Of a DNA stretch of 64,000 nt, positions 58,240 through 59,439 are shown piece by piece (position 1 is the stretch's first letter; the number at the start of each line of letters is the position of its first letter). The notes under the pieces are model-generated. The model was given only the letters and a program-made list of their open reading frames with translations, was not told the DNA's origin and searched no databases. This DNA is from an uncultured Gammaproteobacteria bacterium (GTDB taxonomy: Bacteria; Patescibacteriota; Microgenomatia; Levybacterales; GWA1-39-11). Both the position numbers and the translations under genes were made by a program. Location: contig CAZIAP010000003.1 in the NCBI GenBank assembly GCA_964537315.1, positions 463-64,462 on the forward strand, read 5' to 3'.

Positions 58240-58638
58240 GATAAAAGGTATTGATGATCTTTTAGTGCATTTCTGCTTTAAATATCTATGCTTTGATCAA
58301 CCAATACCTATATATTTATTGAACCATTGTTTTCACAAAAGTGTCAAGTATACAAATAGATGAATGAGCATGTTTTGTACACACTTCGAGGCTGAGGAGG
58401 AATGTAAGAAAACTGATCTGGTGACAATTGTTGCATAGATCAACAAAAAAATAAAAATGTGTATTTTAAATCACTAAATTTTAGCGTGAAAATCAACCAA
58501 AATATTGTATGAAAGTTAATAAAAAGTGACGCCACTCGTGCACCATTAGACATTTTTGCAGGTATTTACTTGCTTGTAGTGTTAGTTTTAATCCTGATTA
58601 TTGACACTGCTTTTCCAGCGTGCTTATACTTAATTACT

Positions 58639-59439
58639 ATGAAACTCTTCAGGGGACTGCGTGTTGTGAGAAAAACTGTAGTCTCTGTGCTTGTTATTAG
58701 TTTATTCTTCGGCTTCTTTGTGAAACCTGCAATCTCACAGGTATTTGATACCTCCTTTGGGGTAGCTAATTATTTGCCGATTGCAGAAGACAACGTTCAG
58801 GATGGCGCTATTATAGTGTCTGCACAGGGAAGATACACGTTAAGTAAAAACGAATATGATCCTCAGATGGTAGGTGTGGTGTCAGAAAATGCCGCCGTAG
58901 TATTCGAGATTGATGGTTCAGATCAAAAACCGGTAGTGGCAAATGGGAATGCGTACGTGCTTGTTTCGACTGTTAATGGTGAGATTCGCAAAGGAGATCT
59001 GATAACAAGCTCTACAAGACCTGGCATAGGCATGAAAGCGGCAAAATCAGGTTATGTGGTTGGTAGTGCATTGGAAGACTTTACTTCTACCAATACAAAT
59101 GAAGTCAAGAAGATAAATGTAGCGCTTAATATCCGTTACAGCACATTTCAGACAAAGGCTACACAAAGCTTGCTTGATATTCTTAATCTGACCGCTGTAG
59201 CAACTACAGAAGAACCTACCACAGTATTTAAATACTTTCTTGCTGGACTCATTCTTGTTATTTCATTTGTAATTGGATTTTTCTCATTTGGACGTATCGC
59301 AAACGCAGGAATAGAAGCATTGGGTCGTAACCCGCTTGCTGGGAGAATGATTCAGCTGGGGATCATGTTAAACGTACTAATTACGGTGGCAATAATTGCA
59401 TCAGGTGTAGTCATGGCATATTTTGTGTTACGATTGTAA
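58639..59439 (+). CDS. chimeric membrane protein: signal/TM + ~90-aa module shared with both giant proteins + C-terminal ATP-synthase c-subunit-like two-helix hairpin
   Basis: The track ORF is 58570-59439 and the ATG at 58639 is preferred. The middle module 'VGVVSEN...[36 protein letters not shown]' aligns with '[36 protein letters not shown]' in giant 1. It also aligns with 'NGPIKAGDPITASQIRGYGAKAINAGEIVGRALSDF' in giant 2. The C-terminus '[41 protein letters not shown]' resembles c-subunit 'IEGIARQPEL...' but has no Asp/Glu at loop P+18. It occupies the atpE position. Confidence 0.55.

Follow-up and report, generated by a model that had tools for sequence, protein, structure and literature searches.

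Nearly all Patescibacteria keep an F-type ATP synthase without a respiratory chain, which is a noted puzzle (PMC11665869), and the incomplete sets of ATPase subunits found in them have been attributed to incomplete genomes or to loss (PMC11738941, PMC10656485). The F1-like X0 ATPases of mycoplasmas are thought to power surface machinery and not ion transport (Beven et al. 2012; PMC3369863). The D4 domain of the phage phi29 protein gp12 is a tandem beta-tulip autochaperone that is required for trimerisation (bioRxiv 10.1101/216911). Here we describe a protein whose closest relatives are subunit c of the ATP synthase, for its C-terminal hairpin, and the gp12 autochaperone, for its ectodomain, and whose closest described system is that of the mycoplasma F1-like X0 ATPases. 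Its gene lies on a stretch of 64,000 nucleotides, called the window in what follows (contig CAZIAP010000003.1 of assembly GCA_964537315.1, positions 463 to 64,462 of the forward strand), which is labelled as an uncultured Gammaproteobacteria bacterium and is placed by GTDB in the Levybacterales of the Patescibacteriota. The product of the open reading frame (ORF) at 58570..59439 (+), in window positions, was given the working name X. It stands where atpE would be expected, ahead of atpF-H-A-G-D, and it joins a domain common to two giant proteins encoded beside it with a subunit c-like hairpin that is devoid of the ion-binding carboxylate throughout the family.

Architecture of X and the homology of its two halves

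When the last 73 residues of X were compared with the Pfam model of subunit c (PF00137), the E-value was 0.015 and the score was 16 bits, which is under the gathering score of 24 bits. The same model was matched at E<1 by 25 of 42 hairpins of the family, the best at 1.1e-4 and all of them below the gathering score, and it was the only recurrent Pfam match of these hairpins, any other family being matched by at most 3 of the 42. No subunit c match was obtained when NCBIfam was searched with the X hairpin. A sequence-profile search of the PDB gave one match, the c subunit of Chloroflexus aurantiacus, aligned GRNP to GRNP; with an E-value of 2.7 it is weak as evidence of homology and it served solely to find the register. 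Canonical c subunits of the Chloroflexi and of the candidate phyla radiation (CPR) were then collected, 29 of which were aligned for a comparison of profiles. In hhalign the profile of the X hairpin matched the canonical one with a probability of 92.1% and an E-value of 6.2e-7 over 66 columns, and both helices and the loop were in register. In this register the invariant Glu of the canonical subunits falls opposite V250 of X, the Thr that precedes it is conserved in both families, and the GxGxGxG motif of the first transmembrane (TM) helix falls opposite I-G-F-F-S-F-G. The predicted structure of the X hairpin has the geometry of a two-TM hairpin and superposes on c subunits at 1.5-2 Å, and c subunits were the specific structural matches of this model.

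Residues were counted over 265 members of the X family and 120 canonical c subunits. At the ion-binding position, 18 residues after the Pro of the loop, Asp or Glu was found in none of the 265 X proteins, which have Ile, Val, Leu or another residue there, whereas Glu was found in 120 of the 120 canonical subunits. An acidic residue anywhere in the second TM helix (TM2) was present in 2 of the 265. The GRNP loop is present in 264 of the 265 and, counted from its Pro, there is an Asn at +13 (N245) in 252 and an Arg or Lys at -13 in 260, while T249 is conserved in 200. The hairpin is also the best-conserved section of X, with a mean column identity of 71% versus 43%, and this pattern points to a hairpin that is under constraint rather than in decay. 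When 1.84 billion representative proteins were searched exhaustively with HMMER and the profile of the hairpin, 598 of them matched at E<=1e-3 (397 at <=1e-10), and the listed ones were all X-like. An earlier note on this DNA, made from the letters alone, had described a hairpin with a GIEALGRNP loop and without a carboxylate at the expected position, as we also find. Its view that the hairpin resembles subunit c agrees with the profile similarity, though this remains below 24 bits in Pfam, and with the geometry of the predicted structure. It had also called the hairpin degenerate, which does not fit the most conserved part of the protein with its invariant GRNP loop.

The other half of X is related to the giant proteins. 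In BLASTP the ectodomain matched the giant of 2783 residues with an E-value of 3e-15 (giant residues 2305-2398) and the giant of 6954 residues with 3e-07 (giant residues 6490-6531), and in a three-way alignment of X and both giants the homology covered about 150 residues, beginning where the mature protein begins and ending with the last strand. The note had recognised this homology to both giants but had put the module at about 90 residues, and it is in fact the entire ectodomain that is homologous. The module of the 6954-residue giant passes the Pfam model Peptidase_G2 (PF11962, the intramolecular chaperone (IMC) autoproteolytic cleavage domain) with 8.1e-08 and 32.4 bits; X itself scores 12.7-13 bits, under the gathering score of 25. 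In the predicted structure the ectodomain of X has the fold of the C-terminal fragment of gp12. It comes directly after the signal peptide with no fibre or beta-helix passenger upstream, so that the arrangement from which gp12 D4 is released is not present in X, and the acidic residues that open the module in the giants (..DYAEY.. and ..DYMEM.., of the D-x-x-E type) are replaced by VANYL in the three-way alignment. The replaced acidic residues and the missing passenger argue that the ectodomain is a free-standing, membrane-tethered copy of the maturation module of the giants.

The AlphaFold2 model of X, which was built on 58 homologues, had a mean predicted local distance difference test score (pLDDT) of 84.6. 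It consists of an N-terminal helix (residues 2-25), strands between residues 42 and 168 with a pLDDT >90, a poorly defined linker and, in the C-terminal half, a short conserved helix (178-190) and two long helices (193-227 and 232-265). The N-termini across the family are hydrophobic and end in A/S-x-A/S followed by Gln or another polar residue, which suggests that residues 1-33 are a cleaved signal peptide; the N-terminal signal or TM segment described earlier is thus a hydrophobic helix with an AxA-type site that is kept across the family. If residues 1-33 are read in this way, the beta domain would be outside the cell and the basic GRNP loop inside, which is the same topology as that of subunit c. 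The juxtamembrane helix carries the motif L.DI.NL.A.AT.E.P, in which L184, A188 and E191 are nearly invariant and P193 is invariant.

The true start of X is almost certainly the ATG at 58639 because the database gene call P0001 is 100% identical to the 266-residue form, because the homologues in the family alignment start at this Met, and because a promoter-like site lies inside the extension that begins at the TTG at 58570. On these grounds the TTG was rejected as a start and is likely an artefact of ORF extension. The protein of 267 or 289 residues that had been proposed ahead of atpF-H-A-G-D is therefore right as to the ORF and its place in the operon, but the start that gives 289 residues is not. 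Since the promoter-like site, which is sigma-70-like and near-consensus, ends 8 nt before the ATG, the leader of X may be very short or absent and its mRNA leaderless or nearly so; the number of such sites around X is not above the shuffled expectation, and the site is a consensus match alone. The gene for the 6954-residue giant begins 330-400 bp upstream of X in divergent orientation.

The operon, its missing membrane subunits and the giant proteins

Neither a regular expression for the RxxxN motif of the a subunit nor tblastn with CPR AtpB gave a match in the window or in 89 loci (1.19 Mb); the a subunit of locus L089 is recognised by the expression (RLFGNIFAG) and L089 was the positive control for tblastn. 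With a canonical CPR c subunit as query, tblastn gave weak matches onto X hairpins alone, and the TM hairpins with an R-N/Q-P loop in the searched loci were all of the X type. Among the multi-TM ORFs of 150-400 residues near the operons none matched PF00119. A divergent a subunit was sought among these neighbours, and they proved instead to be Rce1-like, Bax1-I, VIT1, 7TM_transglut, prepilin peptidase or UppP-like proteins or non-conserved unknowns. There was no second atp cluster in any locus examined. The absence of an a subunit and of a canonical c subunit near X, which had been noted before, therefore holds over the 64-kb window by the motif expression, by tblastn with its control and by the screen of multi-TM ORFs.

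The X family comprises at least 510 clusters at 90% identity and at least 598 clusters at 50%, and it is found in 154 GTDB species representatives, which rules out that X is a one-off chimera. What had looked like a chimera local to one locus is an old, large and well-conserved family. The credibly labelled carriers are Roizmanbacteria, Levybacteria, Daviesbacteria, Woesebacteria, Amesbacteria, 'Microgenomates' and one WWE3, and a few members have already been named 'ATP synthase subunit c' by JGI. Many of the X-bearing metagenome-assembled genomes (MAGs) among the third-party annotation records carry the default title 'uncultured Gammaproteobacteria bacterium' despite a Microgenomates-like gene content, and some loci labelled 'Saccharibacteria' (for example L006 and L013) are syntenic with the Roizmanbacteria locus L004, so taxonomic labels are unreliable here.

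When the seven proteins of the operon were mapped by tblastn, X was followed by b-delta-alpha-gamma-beta-epsilon in essentially every sufficiently long locus, and the synteny of X with the ATPase genes was found in nearly all of about 75 informative loci from several candidate phyla. The position in the atpE slot, ahead of atpF-H-A-G-D, is thus as the note had it and is conserved across loci. The b and delta subunits are frequently too divergent for tblastn yet visible as ORFs. In the window 12 nt separate X from the b-like gene, and in relatives the two overlap by 1-4 nt. In the precomputed Pfam record of the X-type loci inspected, ATP-synt_ab, ATP-synt and ATP-synt_DE_N were present, OSCP was present in most, and ATP-synt_A, ATP-synt_B and ATP-synt_C never occurred, whereas in the control L089, a canonical CPR operon with the order atpB-atpE-atpF-H-A-G-D-C, ATP-synt_A, _B and _C were all recorded. 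In four loci of the Woesebacteria type (L068, L074, L075 and L085) alpha comes directly after X with no room for b or delta. In L075 the ORFs read as a five-gene operon, X-alpha-gamma-beta-epsilon, with a shorter alpha of 434 residues and a beta that keeps GGAGVGKT. The peripheral stalk thus appears to have been lost entirely in these four loci. Locus L045 has a second, divergent X paralogue at 6491-7276 (-), with the loop GIDAMGRNP, which is convergent on the operon, and in this locus gamma is followed by neither beta nor epsilon. A long-form homologue of X, in L008, has a secreted protein after it and not a b-like gene.

The genes downstream of X in the window (Table 1) are divergent. The b-like gene has no Pfam match, its NCBIfam match to subunit b is weak (E 0.011), and its place is conserved. 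The alpha subunit matches the atpA models from profile position 22-26 onwards, so the canonical N-terminal segment is missing, and it has an extra acidic C-terminal tail of about 50 residues. In canonical alpha this N-terminal segment binds delta (OSCP). The operon is completed by contig L001 of the same organism, in which beta is at 9048-10514 and epsilon at 10498-10812; epsilon scored 52 bits against an NCBIfam equivalog cut-off of 67. Among the NCBIfam F1 equivalogs beta alone passes, and alpha, gamma, epsilon and delta are below their cut-offs. Measured against their own cut-offs, the models of the mycoplasma F1-like ATPases, of the N-ATPase and of FliI score far lower than those of canonical F1.

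The operon is flanked on both sides by giants that bear the module, the 6954-residue gene upstream and, in L001, a convergent gene of at least 730 residues after epsilon. An ORF of at least 1000 residues is present in 31 of 85 loci, and the module was found in a large neighbouring protein at 8 loci within the retrieved DNA; since it lies near the far C-terminus of the giants it is often beyond that DNA. A ninth locus, L007, was rejected because its large ORF is itself a long-form X homologue (P0227). In such long-form homologues (396-530 residues; P0200, P0218, P0227 and P0251) a cytoplasmic helix-turn-helix (HTH) domain and a TM helix replace the signal peptide, as at the N-terminus of the giants, where residues 1-110 form two MerR-type HTH domains (PF00376, 1.1e-21). 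The giants start with one or two cytoplasmic MerR-type HTH domains and a TM helix, followed by thousands of extracellular residues (57460-58239 (-) in the window and 7900-8674 (-) in L067), and it is odd to see a DNA-binding fold fused in this way to a surface fibre. A preprint (10.64898/2026.03.03.709456) reports that ATP synthase genes co-localise with a tail-fibre-like protein in CPR; X is not described there.

Other features of the window may be mentioned here. The two giant genes have near their 3' ends a stretch of 676 bp at 98% DNA identity (37736-38411 and 28753-29428), the remainder having diverged, which suggests that the two have recently undergone gene conversion or recombined. Just past the second giant is a gene for an IS200-like transposase (26027-26686). 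Between 12700 and 20300 (-) there is an island richer in G+C (0.45-0.48, versus about 0.38-0.40 in the flanks) with several proteins without Pfam matches and with Ig-like (He_PIG) and DUF11 surface proteins, and this might be the CPR 'Pam' pilus neighbourhood that a 2026 preprint places next to ATP synthase genes. The window starts with the 3' part of a 23S rRNA (1-911 (+)) and a 5S rRNA (1110-1222 (+)), which are followed by pth and other housekeeping genes.

Table 1. Features of X, of the operon and of the giant genes, in window positions
Feature	Position	Strand	Remarks
ORF, longest form	58570..59439	+	289 residues counted from TTG
Promoter-like site	58601..58630	+	TTGACA-18-TATACT, 11/12 consensus matches; inside the TTG extension
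Gene X	58639..59439	+	266 residues and stop; putative signal peptide, gp12-D4-like ectodomain, c-like hairpin
Putative signal peptide, residues 1-33	58639..58737	+	cleavage predicted between AIS and Q; family alignment, AlphaFold2 helix 2-25
Beta-rich, putatively extracellular domain, residues ~34-172	58738..59154	+	predicted phi29 gp12 C-terminal autochaperone fold (tandem beta-tulip; Peptidase_G2 IMC region)
Linker (low confidence) and conserved juxtamembrane helix, residues ~173-192	59155..59214	+	pLDDT 52-76
Two-helix membrane hairpin, C-terminal, residues ~193-266	59215..59436	+	diverged homologue of F-type subunit c
GRNP polar loop, G229-P232	59323..59334	+	aligns in register with the gamma/epsilon-contacting loop (GRNP/ARQP) of canonical c
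N245	59371..59373	+	conserved
T249	59383..59385	+	conserved, precedes V250
V250	59386..59388	+	equivalent of the ion-binding Glu of subunit c (loop Pro + 18)
b-like peripheral-stalk gene	59452..60342	+	296 residues; one N-terminal TM helix, then a long charged helix
Divergent delta (OSCP)	60375..60866	+	PF00213 1.8e-10; NCBIfam 28 bits vs cut-offs 115-172
Divergent F1 alpha	60897..62471	+	PF00006 3.9e-64; TIGR00962 394.6 bits vs 484 cut-off
Divergent F1 gamma	62475..63359	+	PF00231 5.6e-22; TIGR01146 56 bits vs 194 cut-off
F1 beta, truncated by window end	63414..64000	+	TIGR01039 475.8 bits, above 462.85 cut-off
Giant surface protein, 6954 residues, divergent	37375..58239	-	two cytoplasmic MerR-type HTH, TM helix, repeats, module
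gp12-D4/Peptidase_G2 module of the 6954-residue giant	~38560-39042	-	residues ~6400-6560
Second giant, 2783 residues	28431..36782	-	same module at residues ~2270-2420, ~nt 29523-29975

Possible role of X and the alternatives

These observations lead to the question what X does in an operon for F1. Because its hairpin is similar to subunit c, because it occupies the atpE slot and because its ectodomain is common to the giants, the evidence favours the proposal already made in the earlier note, that of a non-canonical Fo or an exapted c-like hairpin tied to the giant-protein system. In the form that we favour, with moderate confidence, X is a c-derived membrane partner of a divergent F1 ATPase which does not translocate ions, is characteristic of the ultra-small CPR bacteria of the Microgenomates type, and probably couples ATP hydrolysis to giant surface fibres. 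X would have been derived from atpE and would have retained the hairpin together with the GRNP loop on the cytoplasmic side, to which the gamma/epsilon foot of F1 docks, while its ancestor would have lost the membrane carboxylate and the Gly-rich packing motif and gained, on the extracellular N-terminus, a beta-tulip domain delivered by a signal peptide, of the trimerising-autochaperone kind found in the phi29 gp12 tailspike and in the neighbouring fibre-like giants. X may oligomerise in the membrane and bind gamma/epsilon through the invariant loop, and beta, in which the P-loop is retained, would hydrolyse ATP. With no ion site and no a-subunit channel, neither protons nor sodium ions would be moved and the energy would not be stored as an ion gradient; instead the work, as rotation or as conformational change, would be passed across the membrane to the ectodomains, and through these the giant trimeric fibres of the cell surface, which share the module, may be contacted, assembled or moved. 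We speculate that the oligomer is not a classical tight c-ring, because the Gly motif is lost and the ectodomain is from a family that forms trimers. Classical stator-rotor coupling is not always required, because some lineages have neither b nor delta.

Several points weigh against this explanation. The similarity of the hairpin to PF00137 is below the gathering score, and canonical c subunits were not reached at library-wide significance in the HMMER search of 1.84 billion proteins; E-values at that scale are too strict for a 60-residue TM hairpin. The absence of atpB and atpE covers the window and about 10 kb on each side in 85 related loci, not whole genomes. Mahendrarajah et al. (PMC10656485) tabulate COGs in their Supplementary Data 4, where a Roizmanbacteria MAG has AtpB=1 with all eight subunits and AtpZ and a Curtissbacteria MAG has AtpB=1 and AtpE=0, both of which may or may not carry X. 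In the same table alpha, beta, gamma and epsilon are each present twice in a MAG labelled Saccharibacteria in which a, b, c and delta are single-copy. Canonical a subunits therefore occur in the group at large and an arrangement with two systems is conceivable, so that X operons might coexist with a canonical a subunit or borrow it. How torque is used in the loci of the Woesebacteria type that are without b and delta is unexplained by any model offered here. In L031, a locus labelled WWE3 on a 536-kb contig, X (2953-3645 (+)) is beside a giant gene and there are no ATPase genes within 10 kb downstream. The enrichment of giant genes near the operon is modest, a few-fold by rough estimate. Finally, the oligomeric state of X, its contact with gamma and epsilon, the ATPase activity and the interaction with the giants are what we infer from the comparisons above.

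Two other explanations may be considered next. One is that the X operon encodes a second, accessory F1-like ATPase beside a canonical F1Fo, comparable to the Type 2 and Type 3 ATPases of mycoplasmas, with atpB and atpE in the other operon. It is compatible with the favoured reading of X itself. The MAG in which alpha, beta, gamma and epsilon are duplicated looks as it should if X, b and delta are too divergent to be detected by COG, the F1 genes are divergent, with four of them under the NCBIfam cut-offs, and the mycoplasmas give a precedent (PMC3369863). But the MAG in question may or may not carry X and may be a mixed bin, there is no second atp cluster in any locus examined, and the order X-F-H-A-G-D-C is exactly the canonical one minus atpB, which looks like remodelling in situ of a single ancestral operon; we therefore consider a separate accessory ATPase rather unlikely. 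The other is that X is a functional, if unusual, c subunit in an F1Fo that translocates ions, its a subunit being elsewhere in the genome and its ion site being made of residues other than a carboxylate, for instance N245 and T249, which are separated by one turn of the helix and are conserved in 252 and 200, respectively, of the 265 proteins. In some bacteria the ATP synthase genes are divided among several loci, some MAGs of the Microgenomates group have a record of AtpB (COG0356), and most lineages keep b and delta. However, to our knowledge every characterised ring of the F, V or A type uses a carboxylate, and the X family has it in 0 of 265 members. N245 sits 5 residues closer to the cytoplasm than the canonical site, xGFFSFG stands where GxGxGxG is expected, no a subunit is found within about 10 kb in 85 loci, and the whole peripheral stalk is missing from the operons of the Woesebacteria type. 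An ion-translocating X is thus improbable to a greater degree than the accessory ATPase.

It could also be asked whether the ectodomain has anything to do with the giants. It may be an intramolecular chaperone for ring assembly, possibly cleaved at the linker, after which the mature c-like ring would merely tether an F1 of the soluble type. The domain family consists of oligomerisation autochaperones that are removed after assembly, the linker at about 170-190 has a pLDDT of 52-58, and AtpI-type chaperones help c-ring assembly in some bacteria. Against such an assembly aid, the ectodomain is kept across at least 598 clusters with many invariant residues, the D-x-x-E-type residues of the giants' module are replaced in X, the long-form homologues have, like the giants, a cytoplasmic HTH and a TM helix in addition, and giants recur beside the operon, all of which makes this as doubtful an explanation as the ion-translocating one. 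The arrangements in L031 and L008, together with a Pfam similarity that stays below threshold, would also fit an X that is unrelated to the ATPase, a surface protein on a generic C-terminal hairpin that is upstream by chance and c-like by convergence. That is very improbable indeed, as the ATPase synteny in nearly all of the about 75 informative loci, the overlapping reading frames and the hhalign match with the loop in register speak against it, and there is little reason for a simple anchor to keep an invariant GRNP loop on the cytoplasmic side.

Returning to X as a c-derived partner of F1, the missing a and c subunits may be real, ordered remodelling across a class that includes Roizman-, Levy-, Davies-, Woese- and Amesbacteria and relatives. 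If confirmed, it would change the inference of energy metabolism for the carriers of X, it would show that an F1 motor was recruited for surface machinery independently a second time, the mycoplasmas being the first case, and it would give a testable handle on how the assembly or movement of giant extracellular fibres is powered. X is also a natural c-type hairpin without a carboxylate for studies of ring assembly and F1 docking. A bolder version, which we regard as rather improbable, is that the only F-type ATPase of Microgenomates was converted to a transmembrane mechanical transducer in which F1 turns or flexes an ion-blind, c-derived ring or bundle, and the ectodomains trimerise, wind, release or move the giants outside the cell, where no ATP exists. 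If that were true, the 'ATP synthase' counted in metabolic reconstructions of a large CPR class would yield neither ATP nor proton-motive force.

Comparison with known systems

We found no description in the literature of X, of a carboxylate-free CPR c subunit, or of operons of this kind that have lost a, b and delta. Subunit c (AtpE, PF00137), and especially the c subunits of Chloroflexi and CPR with a GRNPE loop, is like X in being a two-TM hairpin with both termini outside, in its G/A-R-N/Q-P loop, in the Thr before the carboxylate position, and in the place of its gene directly upstream of atpF-H-A-G-D-C. X differs from it in having no Asp or Glu in TM2, bulky Phe residues in place of GxGxGxG, an added signal peptide and extracellular domain of about 150-160 residues, and no a subunit nearby. 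The ectodomain is of the same family as gp12 D4 and the Peptidase_G2 IMC region, which is also in the adjacent giants, and as such is a trimerising beta-tulip module; unlike gp12 D4 it has nothing to release and no beta-helix passenger, and it is tethered to a membrane hairpin. The release of the cleaved gp12 D4 reportedly needs ATP, which is an intriguing parallel and not evidence. Beta-tulip trimers like lambda gpD, which decorate or cement capsids, were also considered, but there is no capsid context for X and the tailspike autochaperone is the closer match.

As a system, the operon may be set beside three atypical ATPases. The N-ATPase (alternate F1Fo) is likewise encoded by an atypical F-type operon, but it has an a subunit and c subunits that bear the carboxylate, in the order atpDCQRBEFAG, and membership was rejected on this gene order and on the models TIGR03324 and TIGR03305 (369 versus 750 and 435 versus 752 bits). 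The FliI-FliJ-FliH complex of flagella and the type III secretion system is, by functional analogy only, like the X operon an F1-related ATPase, with alpha/beta-like, gamma-like and b/delta-like components, at a membrane assembly that serves both the export and the assembly of extracellular filaments; it differs in that the X operon has true F1 alpha and beta and no export-gate proteins, and membership was rejected since FliI models score 3-4 times lower. Closest are the F1-like X0 ATPases of mycoplasmas (the Type 2 gliding-motor ATPase and Type 3), which also combine alpha-, beta-, gamma- and epsilon-like subunits with partners that are not of Fo in genome-reduced, host-dependent bacteria (Beven et al. 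2012; PMC3369863). Membership in MSC_0619, MSC_0618 and MMOB1660/1670 was rejected on scores of 268 versus 520, 400 versus 570, 371 versus 600 and 365 versus 850 bits, and the likeness would be functional and architectural only. The X system belongs to a different lineage and, unlike the mycoplasma ATPases, it keeps the canonical gene order, b, delta and a recognisable c-derived hairpin, and to these it adds a new membrane partner.

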